Below are positions 8,683 to 28,960 of a stretch of DNA of 28,960 nt, piece after piece. The notes under the pieces are model-generated. The model saw nothing but the letters and a program-made list of their open reading frames with translations. It did not search any database and had not been told where the DNA came from. Each line of letters starts with the position of its first letter. Positions within the stretch are counted from its first letter, which is position 1. Source of the stretch: a virus (Duplodnaviria; Heunggongvirae; Uroviricota; Caudoviricetes); the IMG/VR virus record IMGVR_UViG_2693429733_000004, positions 1 to 28,960 of that record, one strand, 5' to 3'. Made by a program: the position numbers and the translations under genes.

Positions 8683-8693
8683 CGGGAGGCGCT

Positions 8694-9047: not shown

Positions 9048-9058
9048 AAGGGGGATGT

Positions 9059-9637: not shown

Positions 9638-10029
9638 AACATACTGAACTCCGTGCAGCCGTACTGGATGCACTGGAGAAGCATGACACCGGGGCGACGC
9701 TTTTTGATGGTCGCCCCGCTGTTTTTGATGAGGAAGATTTTCCGGCAATTGCCGTTTATCTCACCGGCGCTGAATACACGGGCGAAGAGCTGGACAGCGA
9801 TACCTGGCAGGCGGAGCTGCATATTGAAGTTTTCCTGCCTGCTCAGGTGCCGGATTCAGAGCTGGATTCGTGGATGGAGTCCCGGATTTATCCGGTGATG
9901 AGCGATATCCCGGCACTGTCAGATTTGATCACCAGTATGGTGGCCAGCGGCTATGACTACCGGCGCGACGATGATGCGGGCCTGTGGAGTTCAGCCGATC
10001 TGACTTATGTCATTATCTATGAAATGTGA
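9634..10029 (+). CDS. U: Tail terminator protein gpU (131 aa), copy A
   Basis: 131-aa [31 protein letters not shown]…. Confidence 0.9.
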
Positions 10030-10036
10030 GGACGCT

Positions 10037-10777: not shown

Positions 10778-10792
10778 TCCGGAGAGTCAGCG

Positions 10793-11215
10793 ATGTTCCT
10801 GAAAACCGAATCATTTGAACATAACGGTGTGACCGTCACGCTTTCTGAACTGTCAGCCCTGCAGCGTATTGAGCATCTCGACCTGATGAAACGGCAGGCA
10901 GAACAGGCGGAGTCAGACAGCAACCGGAAGTTTACTGTGGAAGACGCCATCAGAACCGGCGCTTTTGTGGTTGCGATGTCCCTGTGGCATAACCATCCGA
11001 AGAAGACGCAGATGCCGTCCATGAATGAAGCCGTTAAACAGATTGAGCAGGAAGTGCTTACCACCTGGCCCACAGAGGCAATTTCTCATGCTGAAAACGT
11101 GGTGTACCGGCTGTCCGGTATGTATGAGTTTGTGGTGAATGATGCTCCTGAACAGGCAGAGGACGCCGGGCCTGCAGAGCCTGTTTCTGCGGGAAAGTGT
11201 TCGACGGTGAGCTGA
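10793..11215 (+). CDS. G: Tail assembly chaperone gpG (140 aa), copy A
   Basis: 140-aa ORF ending …PVSAGKCSTVS; slippery heptamer near its 3' end. Confidence 0.9.
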   Translation: MFLKTESFEHNGVTVTLSELSALQRIEHLDLMKRQAEQAESDSNRKFTVEDAIRTGAFVVAMSLWHNHPKKTQMPSMNEAVKQIEQEVLTTWPTEAISHAENVVYRLSGMYEFVVNDAPEQAEDAGPAEPVSAGKCSTVS

Positions 11216-11631
11216 GTTTTGCCCTGAAACTGGCGCGTGAGATGGGGCGACCCGACTGGCGCGCCATGCTTGCCGGGATGTCATCCACGGAGTATGCCGA
11301 CTGGCACCGCTTTTACAGTACCCATTATTTTCATGATGTTCTGCTGGATATGCACTTTTCCGGGCTGACGTACACCGTGCTCAGCCTGTTTTTCAGCGAT
11401 CCGGAGATGCATCCGCTGGATTTCAGTCTGCTGAACCGGCGCGAGGCTGACGAAGAGCCTGAAGATGATGTGCTGATGCAGAAAGCGGCAGGGCTTGCCG
11501 GAGGTGTCCGCTTTGGCCCGGACGGGAATGAAGTTATCCCCGCTTCCCCGGATGTGGCGGACATGACGGAGGATGACGTAATGCTGATGACAGTATCAGA
11601 AGGGATCGCAGGAGGAGTCCGGTATGGCTGA
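10793..11631 (+). CDS. T: Tail assembly chaperone GT fusion (G plus T via -1 frameshift at 11191..11197), copy A
   Basis: T-frame ORF 11197..11631 has no independent strong start; fused to G as in lambda. Confidence 0.8.
11191..11197 (+). promoter_or_regulatory. Programmed -1 ribosomal frameshift slippery heptamer G GGA AAG (G to GT), copy A
   Basis: GGGAAAG in correct phase of the G frame (…TCT GCG GGA AAG…); downstream T frame is the -1 frame and stays open to 11631. Confidence 0.8.
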
Positions 11632-14185
11632 ACCGGTAGGCGATCTGGTCGTTGATTTGAGTCTGGATGCGGCCAGATTTGACGAGCAGATGGCCAGAGT
11701 CAGGCGTCATTTTTCCGGTACGGAAAGTGATGCGAAAAAAACAGCGGCAGTCGTTGAACAGTCGCTGAGCCGACAGGCGCTGGCTGCACAGAAAGCGGGG
11801 ATTTCCGTCGGGCAGTATAAAGCCGCCATGCGTATGCTGCCTGCACAGTTCACCGACGTGGCCACGCAGCTTGCAGGGGGGCAGAATCCCTGGCTGATCC
11901 TGCTGCAACAGGGTGGTCAGGTTAAGGACTCCTTCGGCGGGATGATCCCCATGTTCAGGGGGCTTGCCGGCGCGATCACCCTGCCGATGGTGGGGGCCAC
12001 CTCGCTGGCGGTGGCGACCGGTGCGCTGGCGTATGCCTGGTATCAGGGCAACTCAACCCTGTCCGATTTCAACAAAACGCTGGTCCTTTCCGGTAATCAG
12101 GCGGGACTGACGGCAGATCGTATGCTGGTCCTGTCCAGAGCCGGGCAGGCGGCAGGGCTGACGTTTAACCAGACCAGCGAGTCACTCAGCGCACTGGTTA
12201 AGGCGGGGGTAAGCGGTGAGGCTCAGATTGCGTCCATCAGCCAGAGTGTGGCGCGTTTCTCCTCTGCATCCGGCGTGGAGGTGGACAAGGTCGCTGAAGC
12301 CTTCGGGAAGCTGACCACAGACCCGACGTCGGGGCTGACGGCGATGGCACGCCAGTTCCATAACGTGACGGCGGAGCAGATTGCGTATGTTGCTCAGTTG
12401 CAGCGTTCCGGCGATGAAGCCGGGGCATTGCAGGCGGCGAACGAGGCCGCAACGAAAGGGTTTGATGACCAGACCCGCCGCCTGAAAGAGAACATGGGCA
12501 CGCTGGAGACCTGGGCAGACAGGACTGCACGTGCATTCAAATCCATGTGGGATGCGGTGCTGGATATTGGTCGTCCTGATACCGCGCAGGAGATGCTGAT
12601 TAAGGCAGAGGCTGCGTTTAAGAAAGCAGACGACATCTGGAATCTGCGCAAGGATGATTATTTCGTTAACGATGAAGCACGGGCGCGTTACTGGGATGAT
12701 CGTGAAAAAAAACGCCTGGAGCGGGATGCAGCCCAAAAGAGGGTAGATCAACAGCGTCAACAGGACAAAAATGCGCAGCAGCAGAGCGATACCGAAGCGT
12801 CACGGCTGAAATATACCGAAGAGGCGCAGAAGGCTTACGAACGGCTGCAGACGCCGCTGGAGAAATATACCGCCCGTCAGGAAGAACTGAACAAGGCACT
12901 GAAAGACGGAAAAATCCTGCAGGCAGATTACAACACGCTGATGGCGGCGGCGAAAAAGGATTATGAAGCGACGCTGAAAAAGCCGAAACAGTCCGGCGTG
13001 AAGGTGTATGCGGGCGATCGTCAGGAAGACAGTGCTCATGCGGCCCTGCTGACGCTTCAGGCAGAACTCCGGACGCTGGAGAAGCATGCCGGAGCGAATG
13101 AGAAAATCAGCCAGCAGCGCCGGGATTTGTGGAAGGCAGAAAGTCAGTTCGCGGTACTGGAGGAGGCGGCACAACGTCGCCAGCTGTCCGCACAGGAGAA
13201 ATCCCTGCTGGCGCATAAAGACGAGACGCTGGAGTACAAACGCCAGCTGGCTGCACTTGGTGACAAGGTTACGTATCAGGAGCACCTGAATGCGCTGGCG
13301 CAGCAGGCGGATAAATTCGCACAGCAGCAACGGGCAAAACGGGCAGCCATTGATGCGAAAAACCGGGGGCTGACTGACCGGCAGGCAGCGCGGGAAGCCA
13401 CGGAACAGCGCCTGAAGGAACAGTATGGCGATAATCCTCTGGCGCTGAATAACGTCATGTCAGAGCAGAAAAAGACCTGGGCGGCTGAAGACCAGCTTCG
13501 CGGGAGCTGGATGGCAGGCCTGAAGTCCGGCTGGAGTGAGTGGGAAGAGAGCGCCACGGACAGTATGTCACAGGTTAAAAGTGCAGCCACGCAGACCTTT
13601 GATGGTATTGCACAGAATATGGCGGCGATGCTGACCGGCAGTGAACAGAACTGGCGCAGCTTCACCCGCTCCGTGCTGTCCATGATGACAGAAATTCTGC
13701 TTAAGCAGGCAATGGTGGGGATTGTCGGGAGTATCGGCAGCGCCATTGGCGGGGCTGTTGGTGGCGGCGCATCCGCGTCAGGTGGTACAGCCATTCAGGC
13801 CGCTGCGGCGAAATTCCATTTTGCAACCGGGGGATTTACGGGAACCGGCGGCAAATATGAGCCAGCGGGGATTGTTCACCGTGGTGAATTTGTCTTCACG
13901 AAGGAGGCAACCAGCCGGATTGGCGTGGGGAATCTCTACCGGCTGATGCGCGGCTATGCGGAAGGTGGTTATGTGGGCGGTGCCGGAAGTCCGGCGCAGA
14001 TGCGGCGGGCTGAAGGCATTAATTTTAATCAGAACAATCACGTGGTGATTCAGAACGACGGTACGAATGGTCTGCCAGGTCCACAGATGATGAAGGCCGT
14101 GTATGACATGGCCCGCAAGGGTGCCCGTGATGAAATTCAGACACAGATGCGTGATGGTGGCCTGTTCTCCGGAGGTGGACGATGA
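11624..14185 (+). CDS. H: Tape measure protein gpH (853 aa), copy A
   Basis: 853-aa ORF MAEPVGDLVVDLSLDAARFDEQMARVRRHF… ; lambda gpH length. Confidence 0.95.
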   Translation: MAEPVGDLVVDLSLDAARFDEQMARVRRHFSGTESDAKKTAAVVEQSLSRQALAAQKAGISVGQYKAAMRMLPAQFTDVATQLAGGQNPWLILLQQGGQVKDSFGGMIPMFRGLAGAITLPMVGATSLAVATGALAYAWYQGNSTLSDFNKTLVLSGNQAGLTADRMLVLSRAGQAAGLTFNQTSESLSALVKAGVSGEAQIASISQSVARFSSASGVEVDKVAEAFGKLTTDPTSGLTAMARQFHNVTAEQIAYVAQLQRSGDEAGALQAANEAATKGFDDQTRRLKENMGTLETWADRTARAFKSMWDAVLDIGRPDTAQEMLIKAEAAFKKADDIWNLRKDDYFVNDEARARYWDDREKKRLERDAAQKRVDQQRQQDKNAQQQSDTEASRLKYTEEAQKAYERLQTPLEKYTARQEELNKALKDGKILQADYNTLMAAAKKDYEATLKKPKQSGVKVYAGDRQEDSAHAALLTLQAELRTLEKHAGANEKISQQRRDLWKAESQFAVLEEAAQRRQLSAQEKSLLAHKDETLEYKRQLAALGDKVTYQEHLNALAQQADKFAQQQRAKRAAIDAKNRGLTDRQAAREATEQRLKEQYGDNPLALNNVMSEQKKTWAAEDQLRGSWMAGLKSGWSEWEESATDSMSQVKSAATQTFDGIAQNMAAMLTGSEQNWRSFTRSVLSMMTEILLKQAMVGIVGSIGSAIGGAVGGGASASGGTAIQAAAAKFHFATGGFTGTGGKYEPAGIVHRGEFVFTKEATSRIGVGNLYRLMRGYAEGGYVGGAGSPAQMRRAEGINFNQNNHVVIQNDGTNGLPGPQMMKAVYDMARKGARDEIQTQMRDGGLFSGGGR

Positions 14186-14511
14186 AAACCTTCCGCTGGA
14201 AAGTGAAACCCGGTATGGATGTGGCTTCGGCCCCTTCTGTAAGAAAGGTGCGCTTTGGTGATGGCTATTCCCAGCGAGCGCCTGCCGGGCTGAATGCCAA
14301 CCTGAAAACGTACAGCGTGACGCTTTCTGTCCCCCGTGAGGAGGCCATGGTACTGGAGTCGTTTCTGGAAGAGCACGGGGGCTGGAAAGCCTTTCTGTGG
14401 ACGCCGCCTTATGAGTGGCGGCAGATAAAGGTGACCTGCGCAAAATGGTCGTCGCGGGTCAGTATGCTGCGTGTTGAGTTCAGCGCAGAGTTTGAACAGG
14501 TGGTGAACTGA
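14182..14511 (+). CDS. M: Tail tip protein gpM (109 aa), copy A
   Basis: 109-aa ORF, ATGA overlaps with H stop and L start. Confidence 0.9.
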   Translation: MKTFRWKVKPGMDVASAPSVRKVRFGDGYSQRAPAGLNANLKTYSVTLSVPREEAMVLESFLEEHGGWKAFLWTPPYEWRQIKVTCAKWSSRVSMLRVEFSAEFEQVVN

Positions 14512-15083
14512 TGCAGGATATCCGGCAGGAAACACTGAATGAATGCACCCGTGCGGAGCAGTCGGCCAGCGTGGTGCTCTGGGAAATCGATCTGACAGAG
14601 GTCGGTGGAGAACGTTATTTTTTCTGTAATGAGCAGAACGAAAAAGGTGAGCCGGTCACCTGGCAGGGGCGACAGTATCAGCCGTATCCCATTCAGGGGA
14701 GTGGTTTTGAACTGAATGGCAAAGGCACCAGTACGCGCCCCACGCTGATGGTTTCTAACCTGTACGGTATGGTCACCGGGATGGCGGAAGATCTACAGAG
14801 TCTGGTCGGCGGAACGGTGGTCCGGCGTAAGGTTTACGCCCGTTTTCTGGATGCGGTGAACTTCGTCAACGGAAACAGTGACGCCGATCCGGAGCAGGAG
14901 GTGATCAGCCGCTGGCGCATTGAGCAGTGCAGCGAACTGAGCGCGGTGAGTGCCTCTTTTGTACTGTCCACGCCGACGGAAACAGATGGCGCTGTTTTTC
15001 CGGGACGTATCATGCTGGCCAACACCTGCACCTGGACCTATCGCGGAAAATGGCGAATTACCGTCTTATATCACTGGCGCTGA
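14511..15083 (+). pseudogene. L: Truncated gpL (first ~179 codons of a ~232-codon gene) fused to 11 unrelated codons - left side of recombination joint
   Basis: Identical in register to intact L copy (20667..21365) through …PGRIMLANTC.W.YRG, then diverges (KWRITVLYHWR*) where the intact copy continues DECGYNGPAVADEFD…. Confidence 0.8.
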
Positions 15084-15160
15084 CATCTCCGGATGACGGG
15101 GGCAGCTGTTATCTCTGGCTCAACCGTGGGCAACCACCCGCAGTTAACCGGCGACGATAA
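15048..15160 (+). pseudogene. 3' remnant of a second FII gene (last ~25 codons) - right side of the L'::FII' joint
   Basis: Reading frame ending at TAA 15158..15160 encodes …TSPDDGGSCYLWLNRGQPPAVNRRR, parallel to the FII C-terminus at 8970..9047, followed by Z copy B at the same spacing. Confidence 0.65.
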
Positions 15161-15174
15161 ACGCAGGGTGAATT

Positions 15175-15750
15175 ATGGCGATAAAAGGGCTTGATCAGGC
15201 GATTGACAATCTGAGCCGGGTTCGTAAAAACGCCATTCCGGCTGCTTCTGCAATGACCATTAACCGCGTGGCCACAACGGCGATTAATCAGTCTTCGTCA
15301 CAGGTTGCCCGGGAAACCAGGGTGAGACGGAAACTGGTAAAGGAACGGTCCAGACTGAAACGGGCGACGGTCAGAAATCCGAATGCCAGAATTATCGTTA
15401 ACCGCGGTGATCTCCCTGTGATTAAGCTGGGGATCAGAATGCTGGGGCGTCGTCCGAACAGCATACTCAAAGCCGGTCAGCATCGTTATCAGCGGGCATT
15501 TATCCAGCGATTAAATAATGGGCGCTGGCATGTTATGCAACGTCTTCCCCAGGCCAGATATGAGGAGGGCAATGACGACAAGGGAAGGAAAAAGCGTAAT
15601 CGCCTTCCCATTCAGGTGGTGAAAATCCCGATGGCGGCCCCACTGAAACAGGCATTTGATGAGAATGTTGACCGTATCCGGCGTGAACGCCTGCCTAAAG
15701 AACTGGCATACGCGCTGAAACAACAACTGAGGATTGCGATAAAACGATGA
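15175..15750 (+). CDS. Z: Tail completion protein gpZ paralog (191 aa), tail module copy B
   Basis: MAIKGLDQAIDNLSRVRKNAIPAASAMTINRVATTAINQSSSQVARE… ; ~70% aa identity to copy A by eye. Confidence 0.85.
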   Translation: MAIKGLDQAIDNLSRVRKNAIPAASAMTINRVATTAINQSSSQVARETRVRRKLVKERSRLKRATVRNPNARIIVNRGDLPVIKLGIRMLGRRPNSILKAGQHRYQRAFIQRLNNGRWHVMQRLPQARYEEGNDDKGRKKRNRLPIQVVKIPMAAPLKQAFDENVDRIRRERLPKELAYALKQQLRIAIKR

Positions 15751-16142
15751 AACACACTGACATTCGTGCCGCAGTGCTGGATGCACTCGAGCAGCATGAA
15801 CACGGGGCGACGCTGTTTGATGGTCGCCCCGTTGTTTTTGACGAAGAGGATTTTCCTGCGATCGCGGTTTATCTGACGGATGCAGAGTATACCGGTGAAG
15901 AGCTGGATGCAGATACCTGGCGGGCCACACTGCATATTGAGGTGTTTTTACCGGCACAGGTACCTGATTCGGAGCTCGATCAGTGGATGGAAAGCCGGAT
16001 TTATCCGGCGATGACTGCGATCCCTGCACTGGCAGGACTGATTACCACGATGGTTACGCAGGGCTATGAGTATCGTCGTGATGACGATATGGCGTTATGG
16101 AGCTCTGCGGATCTGACTTATTCCATTACATACGAGATGTGA
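15747..16142 (+). CDS. U: Tail terminator gpU paralog (131 aa), copy B
   Basis: [44 protein letters not shown]…. Confidence 0.85.
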
Positions 16143-16149
16143 GGACGAT

Positions 16150-16902
16150 ATGGCAACACCAAATCCCCTGGAGCCGGTAAAAGGTGCCGGTACCACTCTG
16201 TGGGTTTACAACGGCAAGGCTGATGCTTATGCAAACCCGTTGTCAGACGATGACTGGCAGCGACTGGCTAAGGTGAAGGATCTGACGCCGGGCGAGATGA
16301 CGGCTGAATCCTATGATGATAACTACCTGGATGATGAAGACGCGGACTGGAGCGCGACCGGGCAGGGGCAGAAATCTGCAGGTGATACCAGTTTTACGCT
16401 GGCCTGGAAACCGGGAGAGGAAGGCCAGAAAGGGCTTATAGGCTGGTTTGAAAGCGGCGATGTCCGGGCCTATAAAATCCGTTTTCCGAATGGCACGGTG
16501 GATGTGTTTCGTGGCTGGGTCAGCAGTATCGGTAAGGCCGTGACGGCGAAAGAAGTGATCACCCGCACGGTGAAAGTCACTAACGTGGGTAAACCTTCTG
16601 TAGCGGAAGAACGCAGCAAAATTACGCCGGTCAGTGCGATTAAGGTGACGCCGACATCCGGTACGGTGGCAAAAGGGAAAACAACCACCCTGACGGTTTC
16701 TTTTGAGCCGGAAAGTGCAACCGACAAGACGTTCAGAGCGGTTTCCGCCGATCCGTCGAAAGCCACCATTAGTGTGAAAGATATGACAATTACGGTAAAC
16801 GGCGTGGCGACAGGTAAGGTGCAGATCCCTGTGGTGAGCGGAAATGGTCAGTTCGCCGCAGTGGCTGAAGTCACCGTTACTGAAGCGGGCGCTGCAGGGT
16901 AA
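16150..16902 (+). CDS. V: Major tail tube protein gpV paralog (250 aa) with Ig-like C-terminal domain, copy B
   Basis: [49 protein letters not shown]…. Confidence 0.85.
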
Positions 16903-16915
16903 ACGGAGGTAATAC

Positions 16916-17347
16916 ATGTTTCTGAAAACAGAACAATTTGAATATAACGGTGTGTCTGTCACGCTTTCCGAATTGTCTGCGCTGCAGCGTATCGAGCATC
17001 TTGCCCTCCTGAAACGGCGTGCAGAACAGGCAGAATCCAGCGGCAACCTGCAGGTAAGCGTGGAAGATCTCGTCAGAACCGGCGCGTTTCTGGTGGCGAT
17101 GTCCCTGTGGCATAACCATCCACAGAAAACGCAGTCACCGTCAATGAATGAGGCCGTGATGAAGATAGAGCAGGAAGTGCTCACCACCTGGCCTGCCGAT
17201 GCCATTGCCCGGGCGGAAGACGTGGTGTTGTGCCTGTCCGGGATGATCGAAGCTGTTCGTCCGGATACTGATATTACTGAAGTGGCGAAAAATAACACGC
17301 TGACTGATGATGATTTTTCTGCGGGAAAGTCTTCGACGGCGAGCTGA
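16916..17347 (+). CDS. G: Tail assembly chaperone gpG paralog (143 aa), copy B
   Basis: MFLKTEQFEYNGVSVTLSELSALQRIEHL… ; ends …SAGKSSTAS. Confidence 0.85.
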   Translation: MFLKTEQFEYNGVSVTLSELSALQRIEHLALLKRRAEQAESSGNLQVSVEDLVRTGAFLVAMSLWHNHPQKTQSPSMNEAVMKIEQEVLTTWPADAIARAEDVVLCLSGMIEAVRPDTDITEVAKNNTLTDDDFSAGKSSTAS

Positions 17348-17787
17348 ACTTTGCCCTCAGACTGGCGCGTGAGATGGGGAGACCCGACTGGCGCGCCATG
17401 CTTGCCGGGATGACATCCACCGAATATGCCGACTGGCACCGTTTTTACCGCACGCATTATTTTCAGGATACCCAGCTGGATATGCATTTTTCCGGGCTGA
17501 CGTACGCTGTACTCAGCCTGTTTTTTTGCGATCCGGATATGCATCCCTCTGATTTCAGTCTGCTTGTCCCCCGGCATGAGGAAGAGCAGGTGGAGAGGCC
17601 GGATGAGGACAAAATGCTGATGCAGAAAGCGGCAGGACTTGCCGGAGGCGTCCGGTTCGGTGGGGACGGAGGGCGCGATATTTTATCGTCTGCGGATGTG
17701 GCGGATGTCATGGTGGATGATGCCGCATTAATGATGGCTTCAGCGGGGATTCCGGGAGGTGTGAGATATGTCCCAGCCGGTTGGTGA
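16916..17787 (+). CDS. T: GT fusion chaperone (via -1 frameshift), copy B
   Basis: T-frame ORF to 17787 overlapping H copy B start; same arrangement as copy A. Confidence 0.75.
17323..17329 (+). promoter_or_regulatory. -1 frameshift slippery heptamer G GGA AAG, copy B
   Basis: GGGAAAG in phase with the G copy B frame; -1 frame open to 17787. Confidence 0.75.
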
Positions 17788-20341
17788 TCTTGTTATTGAC
17801 CTGAGTCTGGATGCTGTCCGTTTCGATGAGCAGATGAGCCGGGTAAGGCGTCATTTTTCAGGTCTGGATACCGACGCCAGAAAAACCGCCAGTGCTGTTG
17901 AACAGGGCCTGAGCCGCCAGGCGCTGGCTGCACAAAAAGCCGGGATTTCCGTCGGGCAGTATAAAGCGGCCATGCGAACCCTGCCCGCACAGTTTACGGA
18001 TATCGCCACGCAGCTTGCCGGTGGTCAGAATCCCTGGCTGATCCTGCTGCAACAGGGCGGTCAGGTTAAGGACTCCTTCGGCGGGATGATCCCCATGTTC
18101 AGGGGGCTTGCCGATGCGATCACCCTGCCGATGGTCGGGGTCACCTCGCTGGCGGTGGCGACAGGTGCACTGGTGTACGCCTGGTACCAGGGAGATTCCA
18201 CGCTTTCAGCGTTTAATAAAACCCTGGTTCTTTCCGGTAATCAGTCCGGACTGACTGCCGATCGTATGCTGACTCTCTCAAGAGCCGGGCAGGCAGCAGG
18301 GCTGACGTTTAACCAGGCGAGAGAGTCACTGGCAGCCCTGGTGAATGCCGGTGTGCGTGGTGGTGAACAGTTTGATGCCATCAACCAGAGTGTCGCGCGT
18401 TTTGCGTCTGCATCCGGTGTGGAGGTGGATAAAGTCGCTGAAGCCTTCGGGAAGCTGACCACTGACCCGACGTCGGGACTGATGGCGATGGCGCGCCAGT
18501 TCCGTAACGTGACGGCAGAGCAGATTGCGTATGTTGCACAGCTGCAGCGTTCCGGAGACGAGGCCGGGGCATTGCAGGCGGCGAACGATATCGCCACGAA
18601 AGGCTTTGATGAGCAGACCCGTCGCCTGAAAGAAAACATGGGAACACTGGAGACCTGGGCGGATAAAACAGGGAAGGCATTCAAATCGATGTGGGATGCC
18701 ATTCTGGATATCGGTCGTCCGGAATCCTCAGCGGATATGCTCGCCAGTGCGCAGAAGGCATTTGATGAGGCGGATAAAAAATGGCAGTGGTACCAGAGTC
18801 GGAGCCAGCGCCGCGGTAAAACCTCCTCTTTCCGGGCCAACCTTCAGGGCGCATGGGATGACCGGGAAAATGCCCGTCTGGGTCTGGCAGCGGCAACGCT
18901 GCAGTCGGATATGGAAAAAGCCGGTGAACTGGCGGCAAGGGACAGGGCTGAGCGTGAGTCGTCACAGCTGAAGTATACCGGAGAGGCGCAGAAGGCGTAT
19001 GAGCGCCTGCTGACGCCACTGGAGAAATATACCGCCCGGCAGGAAGAGCTGAATAAGGCCCTGAAAGACGGGAAAATCCTGCAGGCGGATTACAACACGC
19101 TGATGGCGTCGGCAAAAAAGGATTATGAGTCGACGCAGAAAAAGCCGTCCGGTGTGAAGGTGTCTGCCGGTGAGCGCCAGGAAGACCAGGCGCATGCAGC
19201 CCTGCTGGCGCTTGAAACTGAGCTCAGGACGCTGGAGAAGCACAGCGGTGCGAATGAAAAAATCAGCCAGCAGCGCCGTGATTTATGGAAAGCGGAAAAT
19301 CAGTATGTGGTCCTGAAAGAGGCCGCCACGAAACGGCAGTTATCTGAGCAGGAAAAATCCCTGCTGGCCCATGAGAAAGAAACGCTGGAGTACAAACGCC
19401 AGCTGGCTGAGCTGGGCGACAAGATTGAACACCAGAAACGGCTGAATGAGCTGGCACAGCAGGCGGCGCGGTTTGAACAGCAGCAGAGCGCGAAGCAGGC
19501 GGCAATCAGCGCAAAAGCCCGCGGACTCACCGACCGTCAGGCGCAGCGGGAGTCGGAAGAGCAGCGCCTTCGTGAGGTGTACGGTGATAATCCGGCTGCG
19601 CTGGCGAAGGCCACATCTGCACTGAAGAACACCTGGTCTGCGGAGGAGCAGCTTCGTGGAAGCTGGATGGCCGGGATGAAGTCCGGCTGGGGCGAGTGGG
19701 CGGAAAGTGCGACGGACAGTTTTTCGCAGGTTAAAAACGCGGCCACGCAGACCTTTGACGGTATTGCACAGAATATGGCAGCGATGCTGATCGGCAGCGA
19801 ACAGAACTGGCGTGGTTTCACCCGTTCTGTGCTGTCCATGCTGACAGAGATTTTTCTGAAGCAGGCGATGGTGGGGATAGTCGGGAGTATCGGCAGCGCC
19901 ATTGGCGGTGCTTTCGGTGGTGGTGCGTCTGCCTCCACGGGGACGGCCATTCAGGCTGCGGCGGCGAACTTCCATTTCGCGACCGGGGGATTTACGGGGA
20001 CGGGGGGTAAATATGAACCTGCGGGGATTGTTCATCGCGGGGAGTTTGTCTTCACGAAGGAGGCGACCAGCCGGATTGGTGTCGGCAATCTGTACCGCCT
20101 GATGCGGGGCTATGCGGAAGGTGGTTATGTCGGCGGTGCCGGAAGTCCGGCGCAGATGCGGCGGGCGGAAGGCATTAATTTTAATCAGAACAATCACGTG
20201 GTGATTCAGAACGACGGCCCCAACGGGCGGGCAGGGCCGCAGCTGATGAAAGCGGTGTATGAGATGGCCCGCAAGGGGGCACAGGATGAACTCCGGCTGC
20301 AGTTGCGTGATGGCGGTATGTTATCAGGGAGCGGTGGATGA
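17768..20341 (+). CDS. H: Tape measure protein gpH paralog (857 aa), copy B
   Basis: MSQPVGDLVIDLSLDAVRFDEQMSRVRRHF… ; collinear with copy A but diverged in central coiled-coil region. Confidence 0.9.
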   Translation: MSQPVGDLVIDLSLDAVRFDEQMSRVRRHFSGLDTDARKTASAVEQGLSRQALAAQKAGISVGQYKAAMRTLPAQFTDIATQLAGGQNPWLILLQQGGQVKDSFGGMIPMFRGLADAITLPMVGVTSLAVATGALVYAWYQGDSTLSAFNKTLVLSGNQSGLTADRMLTLSRAGQAAGLTFNQARESLAALVNAGVRGGEQFDAINQSVARFASASGVEVDKVAEAFGKLTTDPTSGLMAMARQFRNVTAEQIAYVAQLQRSGDEAGALQAANDIATKGFDEQTRRLKENMGTLETWADKTGKAFKSMWDAILDIGRPESSADMLASAQKAFDEADKKWQWYQSRSQRRGKTSSFRANLQGAWDDRENARLGLAAATLQSDMEKAGELAARDRAERESSQLKYTGEAQKAYERLLTPLEKYTARQEELNKALKDGKILQADYNTLMASAKKDYESTQKKPSGVKVSAGERQEDQAHAALLALETELRTLEKHSGANEKISQQRRDLWKAENQYVVLKEAATKRQLSEQEKSLLAHEKETLEYKRQLAELGDKIEHQKRLNELAQQAARFEQQQSAKQAAISAKARGLTDRQAQRESEEQRLREVYGDNPAALAKATSALKNTWSAEEQLRGSWMAGMKSGWGEWAESATDSFSQVKNAATQTFDGIAQNMAAMLIGSEQNWRGFTRSVLSMLTEIFLKQAMVGIVGSIGSAIGGAFGGGASASTGTAIQAAAANFHFATGGFTGTGGKYEPAGIVHRGEFVFTKEATSRIGVGNLYRLMRGYAEGGYVGGAGSPAQMRRAEGINFNQNNHVVIQNDGPNGRAGPQLMKAVYEMARKGAQDELRLQLRDGGMLSGSGG

Positions 20342-20667
20342 AAACCTTTCGCTGGAAAGTGAAGCCGGATATGGAGGTGAACTCGCAGCCATCGGTGCGT
20401 GAAGTGCGTTTTGGTGACGGGTACTCACAGCGTATGGCGGCAGGGCTGAATGCTGACCTGAAAACATACAGGGTGACGCTTTCCGTGACCCGGGAGGAGG
20501 CCCGGCATCTGGAAGCGTTCCTGGCAGAGCACGGTGGCTGGAAGGCATTTTTGTGGAAGCCACCCTATGCATACCGGCAGATAAAGGTGACCTGTGCCGG
20601 GTGGTCTGCGCGGGTCGGGATGTTGCGCGTTGAGTTCAGCGCGGAGTTTAAGCAGGTGGTGAACTGA
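20338..20667 (+). CDS. M: Tail tip protein gpM paralog (109 aa), copy B
   Basis: MKTFRWKVKPDMEVNSQPSVREVRFGDGYSQ…. Confidence 0.9.
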   Translation: MKTFRWKVKPDMEVNSQPSVREVRFGDGYSQRMAAGLNADLKTYRVTLSVTREEARHLEAFLAEHGGWKAFLWKPPYAYRQIKVTCAGWSARVGMLRVEFSAEFKQVVN

Positions 20668-21365
20668 TGCAGGATATTCGCGAAGAAAGTCTGAACGAGT
20701 CGGTTAAGTCAGAGCAGTCACCGCGGGTGGTACTCTGGGAAATCGACCTGACGGTACAGGGTGGTGAGCGGTATTTTTTCTGTAATGAGCTGAATGAAAA
20801 AGGGGAGCCGGTCACCTGGCAGGGGCGTAAGTATGAGGCATACCCGATTGACGGCAGCGGCTTTGAGATGAACGGCCGGGGCAGCAGTGCCAGACCGTCG
20901 CTGACGGTGTCCAATCTGTTCGGTCTGGTCACCGGGATGGCGGAAGACCTGCAGAGTCTGGTGGGGGCCACGGTGGTCCGCCGCCGGGTGTATGCCCGTT
21001 TTCTGGATGCGGTGAATTTCGTTGCGGGCAATCCGGAGGCGGACCCGGAGCAGGAGCTGAGTGACCGCTGGGTGGTGGAGCAGATGTCGCAGCTGACAGC
21101 CATGACGGCCTCGTTTGTGCTGGCTACACCGACCGAGACGGACGGGGCGCTGTTTCCCGGTCGCATCATGCTGGCGAACACCTGTATGTGGGATTACCGG
21201 GGAGATGAATGCGGGTATAACGGTCCTGCGGTGGCGGATGAGTTCGACAACCCCACCACGGATATCCGTAAGGACAGATGCAGCAAGTGCATGCGCGGGT
21301 GTGAACTGCGCAGGAATGTCGGCAATTTTGGCGGTTTCCTTTCCATTAATAAACTTTCGCAGTAA
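20667..21365 (+). CDS. L: Tail tip protein gpL, full length (232 aa; Cys-rich C-terminus), copy B
   Basis: 232-aa ORF ending …CMWDYRGDECGYNGPAVADEFDNPTTDIRKDRCSKCMRGCELRRNVGNFGGFLSINKLSQ. Confidence 0.9.
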   Translation: MQDIREESLNESVKSEQSPRVVLWEIDLTVQGGERYFFCNELNEKGEPVTWQGRKYEAYPIDGSGFEMNGRGSSARPSLTVSNLFGLVTGMAEDLQSLVGATVVRRRVYARFLDAVNFVAGNPEADPEQELSDRWVVEQMSQLTAMTASFVLATPTETDGALFPGRIMLANTCMWDYRGDECGYNGPAVADEFDNPTTDIRKDRCSKCMRGCELRRNVGNFGGFLSINKLSQ

Positions 21366-21375
21366 ATCCCGGTTT

Positions 21376-22119
21376 ATGACACAGACTGAATCAGCGATTC
21401 TGGCACATGCCCGGCGGTGTGCGCCTGCGGAGTCGTGCGGCTTCGTGATAAGCACGCCGGAGGGGGAGCGGTATATCCCTTGTGTGAATATTTCCGCAGA
21501 GCCGGAGGCGTATTTTCGTATCGCACCGGAAGACTGGCTGCGGGCAGAGATGCAGGGGGAGATTGTGGCACTGGTCCACAGTCATCCCGGTGGGCTGCCC
21601 TGGCTGAGCGAGGCTGACCGGCGGTTGCAGATAAAAAGCGCACTGCCCTGGTGGTTGGTCTGCCGGGGTGACATTCACAAATTCCGCTGTGTGCCACATC
21701 TGACAGGACGGCGCTTTGAGCACGGGGTGACGGACTGTTACACGCTGTTCCGGGATGCTTATCATCTGGCGGGGACTGAAATGCCGGATTTTCATCGCGA
21801 GGATGACTGGTGGCGCAACGGTCAGAACCTTTACCTGGATAATATGGCGGTCACCGGCTTTTACCGGGTGCCCCTGTCCTCTGCACAGGCGGGCGATATT
21901 CTGCTGTGCTGCTTTGGTGCTTCGGTACCGAACCATGCCGCCATTTACTGCGGCAACGGTGAGCTGCTTCACCATCTGCCTGAACAACTGAGTAAACGGG
22001 AGAGGTATTCCGAAAAATGGCAACGACGAACGCATTCAGTCTGGCGTCACCGCCACTGGCACGCATCTGCCTTCACGGGGATTTACAACGATTTGGCCGC
22101 CGCCTCAGCCTGTATGTGA
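21376..22119 (+). CDS. K: Tail tip assembly protein gpK (247-codon ORF; MPN/JAMM domain plus NlpC/P60 domain)
   Basis: ATG 21376 ten nt after L stop; JAMM motif HSHPGGLPWLSEAD (HxHx7Sx2D) and catalytic-type Cys in GVTDCYTLF; overlaps I by ~100 nt as in lambda; the classical 199-aa lambda start corresponds to an Ile codon here. Confidence 0.85.
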   Translation: MTQTESAILAHARRCAPAESCGFVISTPEGERYIPCVNISAEPEAYFRIAPEDWLRAEMQGEIVALVHSHPGGLPWLSEADRRLQIKSALPWWLVCRGDIHKFRCVPHLTGRRFEHGVTDCYTLFRDAYHLAGTEMPDFHREDDWWRNGQNLYLDNMAVTGFYRVPLSSAQAGDILLCCFGASVPNHAAIYCGNGELLHHLPEQLSKRERYSEKWQRRTHSVWRHRHWHASAFTGIYNDLAAASACM

Positions 22120-22697
22120 ACACGGCAGCGGAAGCCATTCGCGCCCTGTCGATGCAGATGCCGGGCTTTCGCCGTCAGATGAACGAAGGCTGGTACCAGA
22201 TACGTATTGCCGGTTATGACACGGCACCGGAGGCGGTGTACGCCCGTCTTCACGAACAGCTGGGTGAGGGAACGGTCATCCACATTGTGCCGCGACTGGC
22301 CGGGGCCGGAAAGGGTGGACTGCAGATTGTGCTGGGGGCGGCAGCCATCGTGGGCTCTTTCTTCACTGCCGGGGCATCAATGGCGTTATGGGGTTCAGCC
22401 CTGGCAGCCGGTGGTTTTTCTGCCACCACGATGCTGTTTTCACTTGGAGCCAGCATGATTCTGGGCGGTGTGGCCCAGATGCTGGCCCCGAAGGCAAAAA
22501 CACCGGATTACCGCGCAACGGATAACGGCAGACAGAACACGTACTTTTCCTCACTGGATAACATGATTGCCCAGGGGAACCCGATGCCGGTGCCTTACGG
22601 GGAAATGCTGGTTGGCTCCCGCCGTATATCCCAGGACATCAGCACCCGTGATGAAGGCGGGGGCGGAAAGGTCGTGGTTATCGGGCGGCAGGGGTAA
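22017..22697 (+). CDS. I: Tail tip assembly protein gpI (226 aa)
   Basis: MATTNAFSLASPPLARICLHGDLQRFGRRLSLYVNTAAEAIRAL… ; Gly/Ala-rich hydrophobic central stretch. Confidence 0.85.
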   Translation: MATTNAFSLASPPLARICLHGDLQRFGRRLSLYVNTAAEAIRALSMQMPGFRRQMNEGWYQIRIAGYDTAPEAVYARLHEQLGEGTVIHIVPRLAGAGKGGLQIVLGAAAIVGSFFTAGASMALWGSALAAGGFSATTMLFSLGASMILGGVAQMLAPKAKTPDYRATDNGRQNTYFSSLDNMIAQGNPMPVPYGEMLVGSRRISQDISTRDEGGGGKVVVIGRQG

Positions 22698-22743
22698 AAA
22701 GAATAAAAAAATCCCGCAGTGATCGCGGACAGGAACTGCGGGA
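22695..22743 (-). terminator. Rho-independent terminator on - strand (8-bp stem TCCCGCAG/CTGCGGGA then U-tract)
   Basis: - strand reads tcccgcagttcctgtccgcgatcactgcggga then TTTTTTTATTCTTTTT; on + strand the A-tract precedes the stem, so it is orientation-specific for the - strand. Confidence 0.5.
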
Positions 22744-22801
22744 GAGTTACGAAGATTAAGTGTAAGGAATTATTCTTATATCACGACAAAAAAATTAACG
22801 C
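22700..22801 (-). ncRNA. Candidate ~100-nt small RNA in the I-J intergenic insert (promoter to terminator, no ORF)
   Basis: Bounded by predicted sigma70 promoter (22808..22835) and terminator (22695..22743) on - strand; no ATG in the transcript; AU-rich body; not matched to any known sRNA. Confidence 0.3.
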
Positions 22802-22807
22802 AGAGAA

Positions 22808-22835
22808 ATTATACGCGCCACAGTCAGTTTGTGAA
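22808..22835 (-). promoter_or_regulatory. Predicted sigma70 promoter on - strand: -35 TTCACA, 16-bp spacer, -10 TATAAT
   Basis: - strand sequence ttcaca-aactgactgtggcgcg-tataat-ttctctG; perfect -10 hexamer, 5/6 match at -35. Confidence 0.4.
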
Positions 22836-22895
22836 AATGTGAAGATATTCAGAATTTTTATGCCATTACCGGTTTTAACCAACAGGATTATCGGT

Positions 22896-22943
22896 GGGCA
22901 TGAAAGAAAACCCCGGTATCTGCTGATACCGGGGTTTCTCTTT
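22896..22943. terminator. Strong hairpin (13-bp perfect stem AAACCCCGGTATC/GATACCGGGGTTT, 4-nt loop) flanked by T-rich runs on both strands; likely bidirectional terminator
   Basis: Stem 22908..22920 / 22925..22937; followed by TTTCTCTTT on + strand and TTTTCTTTC on - strand. Confidence 0.5.
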
Positions 22944-23040
22944 AGCATGGCAGAAATGTGTTTCATGCTTTTCGGGCGAAGGATATCCGACTTCTGTACG
23001 GAATGGCAAGTGGCGGTTAATTTATTCAGGGGAAGGCTGT

Positions 23041-26000
23041 ATGGGAAAAGGTGGCGGTAAGGCACACACGCCTCGTGAGGCGAAGGATAATCTCAAATCC
23101 ACGCAGATGATGAGCGTGATTGATGCGATTGGTGAGGGACCGATAGAAGGTCCGGTGAAGGGACTGCAGAGTATCCTGGTGAACAAAACCCCGCTGACGG
23201 ACACGGACGGTAATCCCGTGATACACGGTGTGACGGCGGTCTGACGCGCCGGGGAGCAGGAGCAGACACCACCGGAAGGCTTTGAGTCCTCCGGTGCTGA
23301 AACCGGACTGGGCGTGGAAGTGACGAAGGCAAAACCGGTGACGCGCACCATTACGTCCGCGAACATTGACCGCCTGCGGGTTACCTTCGGGGTGCAGTCA
23401 CTGGTGCAGACCACGTCAAAGGGTGACCGAAACCCGACATCCGTCCGCCTGCTGATTCAGTTACAGCGTAACGGTAACTGGGTGACAGAAAAGGATGTCA
23501 CCATTAACGGCAAGACCACCTCGCAGTTTCTGGCGTCGGTGATTCTGGATAATCTGCCTCCCCGTCCTTTTAACATCCGGATGGTCCGGGAGACAGCGGA
23601 CAGCACCACGGACCAGCTGCAGAATAAGACGCTGTGGTCGTCATACACCGAAATCATCGATGTGAAACAGTGCTACCCGAACACGGCCATTGTGGGGCTG
23701 CAGGTGGATGCGGAGCAGTTCGGCGGCCAGCAGATGACGGTGAACTACCATATCCGCGGTCGCATCATCCAGGTGCCGTCAAACTATGACCCGGAAAAAC
23801 GCACGTACAGTGGTATCTGGGACGGCAGCCTGAAACCGGCATACAGCAACAATCCGGCCTGGTGTCTGTGGGACATGCTGACTCACCCGCGCTACGGCAT
23901 GGGAAAACGTCTGGGGGCGGCGGATGTGGACAAGTGGGCGCTGTATGCCATCGGGCAGTACTGCGACCAGACGGTCCCGGATGGTTTCGGGGAGACCGAG
24001 CCGCGGATGACCTTCAATGCGTACCTGGCACAACAGCGTAAGGCATGGGACGTGCTCAGTGATTTCTGCTCGGCGATGCGCTGTATGCCGGTATGGAACG
24101 GCCAGACGCTGACGTTTGTTCAGGACCGCCCGTCGGATGTGGTGTGGCCGTACACCAACAGCGATGTGGTGGTGGATGATAACGGCGTGGGTTTCCGCTA
24201 CAGCTTCAGTGCCCTGAAGGACCGGCACACGGCGGTGGAGGTGAATTATACCGACCCGCAGAACGGCTGGCAGACCTCCACGGAACTGGTGGAAGACCCG
24301 GAAGCCATACTGCGCTACGGACGCAACCTGCTGAAGATGGACGCGTTCGGCTGTACCAGCCGCGGTCAGGCCCACCGTGCCGGACTGTGGGTGATAAAGA
24401 CCGAACTGCTGGAAACGCAGACGGTGGATTTCACGCTCGGGTCTCAGGGGCTGCGGCACACACCCGGTGACATCATTGAAATCTGTGATAACGACTATGC
24501 CGGGACCCTGACCGGCGGACGTGTCCTGTCCATTGATGCTGCCACCCGCACTCTGACGCTGGACCGTGAAGTGACACTTCCGGAGACCGGTGCCGCCACG
24601 GTGAACCTGATTAACGGCAGCGGTAAGCCGGTGAGTGTGGACATCACCGAACACCCCGCGCCGGACCGGATACAGGTCAGTACCCTGCCTGATGGTGTGG
24701 AGACATACGGGGTGTGGGGACTCTCCCTGCCGTCACTGCGCCGTCGCCTGTTCCGCTGTGTCTCCGTCCGGGAAAACACGGACGGCACCTTTGCCATCAC
24801 GGCGGTGCAGCACGTACTGGAAAAAGAAGCCATCGTGGATAACGGTGCCCGCTTTGAGCCGCAGTCAGGTTCCCTGAACAGCGTCATCCCACCGGCAGTG
24901 CAGCACCTGACGGCCAGTATCTGGCGCAGGCGAAATGGGACACGCCGCGGGTGGTGAAGGGTGTGCGCTTCAGTCTGCGCCTGACCAGTGGTAAGGGAAC
25001 GGATGCCAGACTGGTGACCACCGCCATCACCGCAGACACGGAGCACCGTTTCAGCGGCCTGCCGCTCGGGGAATACACCCTGACGGTGCGGGCGATAAAC
25101 AGCTATGGCCAGCAGGGTGAACCTGCCACCACCACCTTCCGGATTGCCGCACCGGCAGCACCGTCGCGGATTGAGCTGACGCCGGGCTATTTTCAGATAA
25201 CCGCAACGCCGCATCTTGCCGTTTATGACCCGACGGTACAGTTTGAGTTCTGGTTCTCGGAAAAGCGGATTGCGGATATCAGGCAGGTTGAAACCAGCGC
25301 CCGCTATCTTGGCACGGCGCTGTACTGGATAGCCGCCAGTATCAATATCAAACCGGGCCATGATTATTATTTTTACGTTCGCAGTGTGAACACCGTTGGC
25401 AAATCGGCATTCGTGGAGGCTGTCGGTCGGGCGAGCGATGATGCGGAAGGTTACCTGGATTTTTTCAAAGGAGAGATAGGGAAAACACATCTGGCTCAGG
25501 AGCTGTGGACGCAGATTGATAACGGTCAGCTTGCGCCTGACCTGGCTGAAATCAGGACGTCCATTACGGATGTCAGCAATGAAATCACGCAGACTGTCAA
25601 TAAGAAACTGAAAGACCAGAGTGCGGCAATCCAGCAGATACAGAAGGTTCAGGTTGATACAAATAATAATCTGAACAGCATGTGGGCTGTGAAGCTGCAA
25701 CAGATGAAGGACGGACGCCTTTATATTGCGGGTATCGGTGCCGGTATTGAGAATACGCCAGCAGGAATGCAGAGTCAGGTGCTGCTGGCGGCAGACAGGA
25801 TTGCGATGATTAATCCTGCGAATGGCAACACAAAGCCGATGTTTGTTGGTCAGGGCGATCAGATATTCATGAACGACGTGTTCCTGAAACGCCTGACGGC
25901 TCCCACCATTACCAGCGGCGGTAATCCTCCGGCATTTTCCCTGACACCGGACGGAAAACTGACCGCTAAAAATGCAGATATCAGTGGCAGTGTGAATGCG

Positions 26001-26492
26001 AACGCCGGGACGCTCAACAATGTCACAATTAATGAGAACTGTCAGATTAAGGGGAAACTGTCAGCCAACCAGATTGAAGGCGATATAGTCAAAACAGTGG
26101 GTAAGGCTTTTCCGCGGGACTCCCGGGCACCGGAGCGGTGGCCATCAGGGACCATTACCGTCAGGATTTATGACGATCAGCCTTTTGACAGGCAAATTGT
26201 TATTCCGGCGGTGGCATTCAGCGGCGCTAAACATGAGCGGGAGAATAACGATATTTATTCGTCATGCCGCCTGATAGTACGGAAAAACGGTGCTGAAATT
26301 TATAACCGTACCGCGCTGGATAATACGCTGATTTACAGTGGTGTTATTGATATGCCAGCTGGTCGCGGCCACATGACGCTGGAGTTTTCGGTGTCAGCAT
26401 GGCTGGTGAATAACTGGTATCCCACAGCAAGTATCAGCGATTTGCTGGTTGTGGTGATGAAGAAAGCCACCGCAGGCATCAGTATCAGCTGA
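23041..26492 (+). pseudogene. J: Tail fibre / host specificity protein gpJ, disrupted (in-frame TGA at 23242..23244; frameshift near 24915..24920)
   Basis: N-terminus MGKGGGKAHTPREAKDNLKSTQMMSVIDAIGEGPIEGP… then TGA, same frame continues RAGEQEQTPPEGFESSG… to 24957; C-terminal ~520 codons in another frame (opens 24858, ends 26492); total span ~1150 codons, the size of an intact J. Confidence 0.8.
25141..26050 (+). repeat. Direct repeat copy 1 (~0.9 kb, ~95-97% identical by eye to 27891..28800) inside J copy B
   Basis: Long identical runs e.g. gattgagctgacgccgggctattttcagataaccgc… and …gatcagatattcatgaacgacgtgttcctgaaacgcctgacgg… present at both loci. Confidence 0.85.
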
Positions 26493-26510
26493 ATTTTATA
26501 ACCCATATAC

Positions 26511-26536
26511 GGGCGCCAGAAATGGCGCCTTTTTTA
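26511..26536 (+). terminator. Rho-independent terminator downstream of J (GGCGCC stem, 6-nt loop, TTTTTTA)
   Basis: gggcgcc-agaaat-ggcgcc followed by tttttta directly after the J stop. Confidence 0.6.
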
Positions 26537-26559
26537 TTGCAGAAAAGCGAGAGGTAATT

Positions 26560-28960
26560 ATGCGTAAAGTTTGTGCAGCCATTTTGTCCGCAGCCATCTG
26601 TCTGTCCGTATCCGGTGCAGGCATGGGGAAACGTCTTGGTGCGGCAGATGTGGATAAATGGGCGCTGTATGTCATCGGCCAGTACTGTGACCAGTCGGTG
26701 CCGGACGGCTTTGGCAGCACGGAGCCGCGCATCACCTGTAATGCCTGGCTGACCACACAGCGCAAGGCGTGGGATGTGCTCAGTGATTTCTGCTCGGCGA
26801 TGCGCTGTATGCCGGTATGGAACGGGCAGACGCTGACGTTCGTGCAGGACCGACAGTCGGATAAGGTGTGGGCCTATAACCGCAGTAATGTGGTGATGCC
26901 GGATGATGGCGCGCCGTTCCGCTACAGTTTCAGCGCCCTGAAAGACCGCCATAATGCCGTTGAGGTGAACTGGATTGACCCGGATAACGGCTGGGAGACG
27001 GCGACAGAGCTTGTGGAGGATACGCAGGCCATTGCCCGTTACGGTCGTAACGTCACGAAAATGGATGCCTTTGGCTGTACCAGCCGGGGGCAGGCACACC
27101 GCGCCGGGCTGTGGCTGATTAAAACGGAACTGCTGGAGACGCAGACCGTGGATTTCAGCGTGGGTGCTGAAGGGCTTCGTCATGTACCGGGCGATGTCAT
27201 TGAAATCTGCGATGATGACTATGCCGGTATCCGCACCGGCGGGCGCGTGCTGGCGGTGAACAGCCAGACCCGGACGCTGACGCTCGACCGTGAAATCACG
27301 CTGCCATCCTCCGGCACCACGCTGATAAGCCTGGTTGACGGGCAGGGGAATCCGGTCAGCGTGGAGGTCCAGTCCGTCACCGACGGCGTGAAGGTAAAAG
27401 TGAGCCGTGTTCCTGACGGTGTTGCTGAATACAGCGTGTGGGGGCTGAAGCTGCCGACGCTGCGCCAGCGCCTGTTCCGCTGCGTGAGTATCCGTGAGAA
27501 CGACGACGGCACGTATGCCATCACCGCCGTGCAGCATGTGCCGGAAAAAGAAGCCATCGTGGATAACGGGGCGCACTTTGACGGCGACCAGAGCGGCACG
27601 GTGAATGGTGTCACGCCGCCAGCGGTGCAGCACCTGACTGCCGAAGTCACCGCAGACAGCGGGGAATATCAGGTGCTGGCGCGCTGGGACACGCCGAAGG
27701 TGGTGAAGGGCGTGAGCTTCCTGCTCCGTCTGACCGTAACAGCGGATGACGGCAGTGAGCGGCTGGTCAGCACGGCCCGGACGACGGAAACCACTTACCG
27801 CTTCACACAACTGGCGCTGGGGAACTACAGGCTGACAGTCCGGGCAGTAAATGCGTGGGGGCAGCAGGGCGATCCGGCGTCGGTATCGTTCCGGATTGCC
27901 GCACCGGCAGCGCTGTCGCGGATTGAGCTGACGCCGGGCTATTTTCAGATAACCGCCACGCCGCATCTTGCGGTTTATGATCCGACGGTACAGTTTGAGT
28001 TCTGGTTCTCGGAAAAGCGGATTGCGGATATCAGGCAGGTTGAAACCACAGCACGCTATCTTGGCACGGCGCTGTACTGGATAGCCGCCAGTATCAATAT
28101 CAAACCGGGCCATGATTATTACTTTTATATCCGCAGTGTGAACACCGTTGGCAAATCGGCATTCGTGGAGGCTGTTGGTCAGCCGAGTGATGATGCATCC
28201 GGTTATCTGGATTTTTTCAAAGGCGAGATAGGGAAAACCCATCTGGCTCAGGAGCTGTGGACGCAGATTGATAACGGTCAGCTTGCGCCTGACCTGGCTG
28301 AAATCAGGACGTCCATTACGGATGTCAGCAATGAAATCACGCAGACTGTCAATAAGAAACTGAAAGACCAGAGTGCGGCAATCCAGCAGATACAGAAGGT
28401 TCAGGTTGATACAAATAATAACCTGAACAGCATGTGGGCTGTGAAGCTGCAGCAGATGCAGGACGGACGCCTTTATATCGCGGGTATTGGTGCCGGTATT
28501 GAGAACACCCCTGACGGCATGCAGAGTCAGGTGCTGCTGGCGGCGGACAGGATTGCGATGGTTAATCCTGCGAATGGCAACACAAAACCGATGTTTGTTG
28601 GTCAGGGCGATCAGATATTCATGAACGACGTGTTCCTGAAACGCCTGACGGCCCCCACCATTACCAGCGGTGGAAATCCATCGGCATTTTCCCTGACTCC
28701 GGACGGAAAGCTGACCGCTAAAAATGCGGATATCAGTGGCAGTGTGAATGCGAACGCCGGGACGCTCAACAATGTCACGGTAAATGAAAACTGTACGATT
28801 AAGGGCATGCTGGAGGCGACTCAGGTCAGAGGTGACTTCGTTAAAGCTGTATCCAAATCATTTCCGAAACAGGCTGGTACGTGGGGTAACACGGAAACAC
28901 CAAACGGGACGGTTACAGTCACCATAAGCGATGATCATAACTTTGACCGCCAGATTATTA
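26560..28960 (+). CDS. Chimeric ORF: lom 5' end (first ~20 codons, signal peptide) fused in frame to gpJ from about codon 290 onward; partial, runs off window end
   Basis: GAGAGG SD then ATG 26560; [20 protein letters not shown] (Lom-type signal peptide) immediately followed by [32 protein letters not shown]… (internal J sequence, parallel to 23896 onward in J copy B); frame open to position 28960; not in ORF track because no stop in window. Confidence 0.75.
27891..28800 (+). repeat. Direct repeat copy 2 (pairs with 25141..26050) inside the lom'::J' ORF
   Basis: See copy 1; the flanking J sequence on either side is much more diverged (~80% or less). Confidence 0.85.

Follow-up and report, generated by a model that had tools for sequence, protein, structure and literature searches.

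The lambda-type J gene at positions 23041 to 26492 of the window, hereafter J copy B, is very probably a non-functional pseudogene lying in a degraded lambdoid prophage remnant and disabled by two independent mutations. The window, i.e., the whole stretch of 28,960 nucleotides that was analysed, is an entire draft contig of Shigella sonnei (CXDM01000046.1, assembly GCA_001253895.1). The remnant, called remnant B or module B below, carries both lesions in every S. sonnei locus fetched (n = 14). A pseudogene was already the main reading in the preliminary description of this DNA, and it is supported by the lesions seen relative to an intact orthologue and by their recurrence in 14 of 14 loci.

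Two lesions in the J reading frame

From its ATG at 23041, J copy B is open for 67 codons and directly meets an in-frame TGA at 23242-23244, past which the original frame stays open until another TGA at 24955-24957. A downstream frame, open from 24858, runs to 26492. Its first start-type codon is GTG 24951, which sits inside the motif GTGGTGA (24951-24957) and overlaps the upstream stop at 24955-24957. The gene is laid out in the window as follows.

23041..23244, plus strand: J fragment 1, codons 1-67 and the premature TGA (23242-23244), where the intact orthologue has TGG
23245..24957, plus strand: J middle part in the original frame, with FNIII-A_GpJ, Phage-tail_3 and the first ~17 residues of Ig_J
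24914..24915, plus strand: junction of the 22-nt deletion; intact relatives read CTGACGG-T-GGAGGTGAGCGCAG-CTGACGG-A
24951..26492, plus strand: J C-terminal part in the -1 frame, with Ig_J from profile position 38/104, Ig_J_second, Phage_Tail_Tip and Ig_GpJ_C

The middle part ends with 14 out-of-frame codons (24915-24954) followed by TGA 24955-24957. In public annotations, it is represented by a 547-aa ORF starting at GTG 23314, and the C-terminal part by products of 513 or 509 aa, which are start variants.

The reference for comparison is the closest intact gene among 5,426 complete E. coli genomes, namely the gpJ gene of strain UID2309220041 (locus L001, 3342-6815), which encodes 1157 aa and displays 98% nucleotide identity to J copy B. 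The alignment of both genes contains 54 substitutions and one gap. Over the first 788 nt of J copy B, the sole difference is G>A at 23244, by which TGG (Trp68) of the intact orthologue becomes the opal codon TGA. The gap corresponds to exactly 22 nt that are absent after 24914, and the same segment (...AEVTADSGE...) is present in the other J sequence of the window, at about 27640-27661. The preliminary description, all coordinates of which are right, had pointed out the TGA with an open frame behind it, the missing 22 nt near 24915 with a frame change about 625 codons into the gene, and the overlap of GTG 24951 with the upstream stop. Reading of the frames bears out the first and the last, with TGG in the intact orthologue as further confirmation of the stop, and the alignments to L001 and to the other J of the window confirm the deletion.

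In the intact L001 gene, the lost segment is flanked by a 7-bp direct repeat, CTGACGG, and the 22-bp deletion most likely arose by replication slippage (slipped-strand) or by a microhomology-mediated event. The retained repeat is followed by C in J copy B but by T or A in L001, depending on which of the two candidate positions is taken; the end points of the deletion are thus stated relative to L001 and not to the exact ancestral allele. The G>A transition converting Trp68 (TGG) into opal TGA would be one of the two independent disabling events. The deletion beside the CTGACGG repeat would be the other one, causing a -1 shift within the first Ig-like domain.

Identity of the protein and position of the lesions

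The intact orthologue matches lambda J (8IYK) with 1810 bits and E = 0, its residues 1-834 aligning to residues 1-836, and its C-terminal part matches gpJ C-terminal structures. The stretches surrounding the two lesions can be aligned with residues 1-121 and 584-714 of lambda J. Across the pieces of J copy B, the ordered Pfam set FNIII-A_GpJ, Phage-tail_3, Ig_J, Ig_J_second, Phage_Tail_Tip and Ig_GpJ_C is found, all six domains being present though Ig_J is split at profile position 38/104. In complete S. sonnei genomes, the gene stands after M-L-K-I and before lom and stf.

J copy B thus resembles lambda gpJ (PDB 8IYK, 8K35, 9E7M; 1132 aa) by the same ordered domains and the same place after I and before lom/stf. 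Unlike lambda gpJ, it has two breaks in its frame, TGA at codon 68 and the 22-nt deletion at codons 625-632, and it sits in a truncated prophage remnant and not in a phage. The single uninterrupted ORF of about 1130-1165 codons expected of the family is lacking. J copy B is a gpJ pseudogene and not a functional member of the gpJ family.

Residue 68, which is Trp in the intact orthologue and Phe in lambda J and in the two distant J-like tail-tip proteins shown, belongs to a conserved aromatic-Arg-x-Gly motif. Residues 625-632 (VEVSAADG), which correspond to AEVTADSG at about 626-633 of lambda J, disappear with the deletion. Ig_J extends over residues 609-712 in the intact protein, so the deletion falls inside this domain, and about 20 of its profile positions are either missing or occupied by 14 nonsense residues. 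The break therefore does not coincide with a domain boundary, since the deletion is internal to Ig_J and the C-terminal ORF begins at profile position 38/104.

Distribution of the lesions among genomes

The 14 independently assembled S. sonnei loci include six complete chromosomes, e.g., HE616528.1 (53G), CP044151.1, CP044191.1, CP026802.1, and CP041511.1. Both lesions, A at 23244 and the absence of the 22 nt, are identical in all of them. In HE616528.1, the counterpart of 23041-26492 lies at about 2.083-2.086 Mb. An exact-sequence look-up in a public protein collection retrieved the 67-aa piece on 111 contigs and the 547-aa piece on 24, and the C-terminal piece was found on 125 contigs as 513 aa and on 129 as 509 aa, including chromosomes of 4.9-5.0 Mb. 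The pieces bear the name "host specificity protein J [Shigella sonnei]", one accession being from strain 53G; the 14 loci were taken from those carrying these pieces. The fragments of J copy B are already known: many S. sonnei genomes in public databases contain them as named entries.

This distribution bears on the suggestion that errors of sequencing or assembly in a short-read draft simulate the stop and the deletion, the real gene being intact. Misjoins in the draft scaffold that forms the window do justify some distrust of the assembly, but errors would have had to occur base for base in 14 independent assemblies, six complete chromosomes among them, and to yield the protein pieces deposited on 111 (67 aa), 24 (547 aa), and 125 and 129 (513 and 509 aa) contigs. 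In addition, a 22-nt deletion is atypical of read errors. The suggestion of errors can practically be dismissed, and the recurrence in S. sonnei refutes sequencing error as the alternative put forward in the preliminary description. Two characteristics of a pseudogene are found in J copy B: its lesions are disabling by comparison with intact close orthologues, and they are reproducible in independent assemblies.

Neither lesion occurs in any of the 5,426 complete E. coli genomes, about 1,850 of which carry this J stretch at at least 90% identity. For the 100 nt around the stop, the best E. coli matches reach 99/100 and are TGG alleles otherwise identical to J copy B. For the 100 nt around the deletion, the best matches extend over 122 nt in two pieces, and in all complete E. 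coli genomes matching this stretch the 22 nt are present and the frame is single. Exact matches to either lesion-bearing string are also absent from the GTDB species representatives. This last negative result is weak evidence because GTDB presumably subsumes Shigella under E. coli, for which the one representative genome is unlikely to come from S. sonnei.

J copy B varies at six SNP sites across the 14 loci, three of them non-synonymous and three synonymous, and the window has the E. coli-like state at all six. In this small sample (six sites, 14 loci), the substitutions bear no sign of constraint.

Scaffolded make-up of the window

Scaffolding assembled the window from three pieces, with one join at 15047 and, as the base at the breakpoint suggests, probably another at 26619.

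1..15046, plus strand: prophage A piece, beginning with Nu1 and reaching about codon 178 of L; 1643-15046 shows 99.8% identity to a complete lambda-like prophage (A) of the complete genome CP032523.1 (locus L018, 1-13423)
15047, no strand: first scaffold join; N in the public record of the same contig (L016), A in the window
15048..26618, plus strand: piece B, prophage remnant, 99.92-99.95% identical to S. sonnei 53G (L002, 98-11668) and to L010
26619, no strand: probable second join, presumably a scaffold N; the base fits neither lom of remnant B nor J of prophage A
26620..28960, plus strand: part of prophage A J, from about nt 856 of the gene, 99.6% identical to L018 15820-18160

Other draft contigs with a chimeric gene order likewise carry one or several N exactly at the breakpoints. 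The L' ORF spanning the first join (14511-15083) is found on one contig only in the whole collection. A real chromosomal tandem duplication of tail modules was considered and is ruled out by the join at an N (15047), by the base at 26619 matching neither parent, by the junction ORF being confined to a single contig, and by complete genomes, in which the two elements are placed in different contexts.

The preliminary description treated 26560..28960 as an adjacent J copy. Actually, 26560-26618 covers the opening 59 nt of lom and belongs to remnant B, whereas 26620-28960 is a separate piece from the other prophage, where J stays open over 780 codons as far as the end of the contig. The proposal that the prophage is probably tail-defective for want of an intact J in the window likewise starts from a mistaken view of the locus, as the window is a three-piece scaffold and prophage A in complete genomes possesses intact L (232 aa), K, and I and an intact J of 1165 aa. 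Inferring the completeness of a prophage from the window alone is unsafe because single-N joins have become ordinary bases. The joins create the illusion of a tandem of two tail modules and of "three J copies", and the lesson to be drawn is methodological.

In prophage A, the head protease gene C displays a 19-nt deletion between CAGCCG direct repeats, a lesion of the same class as that of J copy B. It is common to one other draft and absent from three other loci, one of them in a complete genome.

The remnant carrying the broken gene

In the window, remnant B comprises an FII stub, Z, U, V, G, T, H, M, L, K, I, and the broken J, and it breaks off 59 nt into lom. The FII-like stub, upstream of Z, is limited to the last ~24 codons (15086-15160). 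In complete genomes, module B opens with IS21-family istB/istA, encoded on the opposite strand; Z, U, V, G, T, H, M, L, K, and I follow, and after them come three J pieces, lom, stf, and tfa. The IS21-family element stands directly upstream of the FII stub. The structural operon of the module is cut, as only ~24 FII codons survive upstream of Z, and an IS separates it from whatever stands farther upstream. The remnant is defective for more reasons than J.

Elsewhere in the module, the tail genes from Z to I as well as lom, stf, and tfa retain full-length ORFs. This indicates that the decay is recent and of limited extent and counts to some extent against a pseudogene. Additional lesions are present in single genomes: J of CP026802.1 carries a further deletion of 17 nt equivalent to 24694-24710 of the window, gene I of CP044191.1 is called as two pieces, and stf of CP041511.1 contains transposase genes, apparently from an IS. 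The J pieces would thus be debris, probably neutral and still decaying in individual strains. Neutrality is suggested by the lack of a recoding signal, by the cut-off FII gene, and by the adjacent IS21-family element. Neither lesion carries a recoding signal, and J is presumably not expressed; indirect signs that it yields no functional product are the missing Shine-Dalgarno and slippery sequences, the truncated operon, and the additional decay in some strains.

Recoding signals and possible expression of the J pieces

No slippery heptamer of the X_XXY_YYZ type exists in the overlap of both frames (24858-24957), whose sole homopolymer is AAA, and a programmed frameshift in this interval was rejected on that ground. 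No Rfam family matched anywhere in the window, and a known RNA or recoding element was likewise rejected. Programmed -1 ribosomal frameshifting is recognized by a heptamer and by a two-frame arrangement conserved in relatives, both of which are missing from J copy B. As for selenocysteine insertion or another programmed recoding of UGA, no recoding RNA element is detected with Rfam and the UGA is not conserved, relatives having TGG. Moreover, no signal has co-evolved with the stop, since the 100 nt around TGA are otherwise identical to E. coli TGG alleles. Finally, no Shine-Dalgarno-like sequence is found in the 20 nt preceding GTG 23314 or GTG 24951.

Two overlapping ORFs in a -1 relation within a lambda-like tail operon recall the tail assembly chaperones G and GT of lambda. 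These are produced by a programmed -1 frameshift at a slippery heptamer, and the system is conserved across phages. Unlike G/GT, J copy B is devoid of a heptamer and its frame change results from a lineage-specific 22-nt deletion, absent from the complete E. coli genomes carrying the J segment.

Against this background, production of a full-length J by recoding, with UGA read as Trp68 and a -1 frameshift between 24858 and 24957, has next to no chance of being real. UGA followed by C is a weak terminator; C does follow the stop here, and -1 is the direction needed. tRNA-Trp misreads UGA in competition with RF2, and such misreading would restore the ancestral residue (PMC10570021). Some readthrough product of the N-terminal part is therefore conceivable. 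Readthrough at 23242, listed earlier as an alternative, is nevertheless insufficient alone because it restores Trp68 only and leaves the 22-nt frameshift unrepaired. A frameshift added to it would find neither a heptamer nor an Rfam element in place, and the flanks are the same as in lesion-free alleles, nothing having evolved to promote recoding. Even after the shift, eight beta-strand residues would be missing, and the combination of two inefficient events would give a negligible yield.

It is very improbable, though a little less so, that J is made as separate functional polypeptides through initiation or reinitiation at GTG 23314 and GTG 24951, the products joining the tail tip or acting alone, for instance as a free receptor-binding fragment. 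The start/stop overlap GTGGTGA at 24951-24957 could allow termination-reinitiation, and the C-terminal piece keeps Ig_J_second, Phage_Tail_Tip, and the receptor-binding Ig_GpJ_C intact. However, as the break is inside Ig_J, a reinitiation product would start in the middle of a domain, both GTG codons lack a Shine-Dalgarno sequence, and the first 67 residues would be detached. The 17-nt deletion of one strain hits the middle piece, and the equal numbers of non-synonymous and synonymous SNPs (three each, in a small sample) give no sign of constraint. Besides, no late transcription of module B is obvious because FII is truncated and an IS21-family element lies upstream.

Significance for S. sonnei

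Prophage pseudogenes and IS-mediated genome decay in Shigella are treated, e.g., in PMC8072062, which cites the 2020 study of Hawkey et al. Features of this kind of decay are recognizable in remnant B of this host-restricted, IS-rich lineage: J has acquired a nonsense point mutation as well as a short deletion, an IS21-family element forms the border, and single strains have extra lesions. IS elements have multiplied in Shigella genomes and pseudogenes have formed on a large scale, IS21 being significantly enriched in S. sonnei (PMC8072062). No substantive difference distinguishes J copy B from prophage decay in Shigella in general, of which it is one instance.

There is a slim chance that the intact 3' part of the gene (24951-26492), which encodes the fibre and receptor-binding domains, still matters, either as a free fragment produced by termination-reinitiation or as a silent recombination donor of receptor-binding sequence. 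The donor role is the more plausible of both. The recipients could be superinfecting lambdoid phages or the co-resident prophage, whose intact J is 92% identical to 25059-26053. On the whole, the biological weight of J copy B is small: S. sonnei is known for pseudogenisation, and J copy B adds another decayed prophage gene.

Assembly of the contig

The draft contig CXDM01000046.1, which is the window itself, is a scaffold of three pieces. Position 15047 is an A in the window, whereas the public record has an N, and base 26619, which matches neither of the parent sequences flanking it, is presumably also an N in origin. The tandem tail modules and the adjoining J fragment are thus artefacts of the joins at 15047 and 26619.

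At its upstream edge, remnant B (the owner of 15048-26618) retains a stub of a head-tail joining gene, directly upstream of which an IS21-family element (istA of 390 aa, istB of 265 aa) is found in complete genomes.

Window 15086-15160: FII-like head-tail joining gene upstream of Z, only the last ~24 codons left

Variation of remnant B among S. sonnei strains

Over the 3.45 kb of the J pseudogene, strains differ from one another at no more than five positions among 14 S. sonnei loci, in which six SNP sites were identified, three of them non-synonymous and three synonymous.

SNP sites in the J pseudogene: window 23141, 23424, 23826, 23983, 24746 and 25455

Such a density seems high for so clonal a species, and may be due to relaxed constraint or to gene conversion from paralogous J copies. 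Additional damage to remnant B, affecting J, gene I and the tail-fibre gene stf, is carried by some S. sonnei strains.

CP026802.1 (L006 8381-9892, corresponding to window 24694-24710): middle piece of J lacking a further 17 nt
CP044191.1 (L005 7167-7747): gene I annotated in two parts, of 113 and 80 aa
CP041511.1 (L007 12361-13911): transposase genes inside stf, an apparent IS

Between the stop of I and the start of J lies an AT-rich spacer of 343 nt (window 22698-23040), in which a GC-rich hairpin precedes a T-rich run (~22912-22950). The I-J gap is likewise 343 nt in the annotation of the E. coli locus with an intact J. The 113-aa ORF of the spacer had no Pfam match. The spacer may represent a terminator or the insertion of a small element.

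Downstream of lom, the region of the tail-fibre C-terminus and tfa varies in gene order and orientation among complete S. sonnei genomes.

Varying tail-fibre/tfa region: ~12361-17100 in the remnant B loci L002, L004 and L006

Between these genomes, stf encodes either 918 or 875 aa and the tfa pairs are swapped. In locus L012, the annotation has a fragment of the resolvase family close by. The region looks like an invertible tail-fibre segment.

Head gene C of prophage A

In prophage A, a 19-nt deletion after 5793, located between 6-bp direct repeats CAGCCG, breaks the head protease/scaffold gene C (window 5519-6819) in two, leaving parts of 97 and 336 aa. The same deletion is present in the draft locus L017; it is absent from L018 (complete genome CP032523.1), L019 and L020, where C is 439 aa long. 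This deletion is a polymorphic pseudogenisation within S. sonnei, an event of the same kind as the 22-nt deletion in J.
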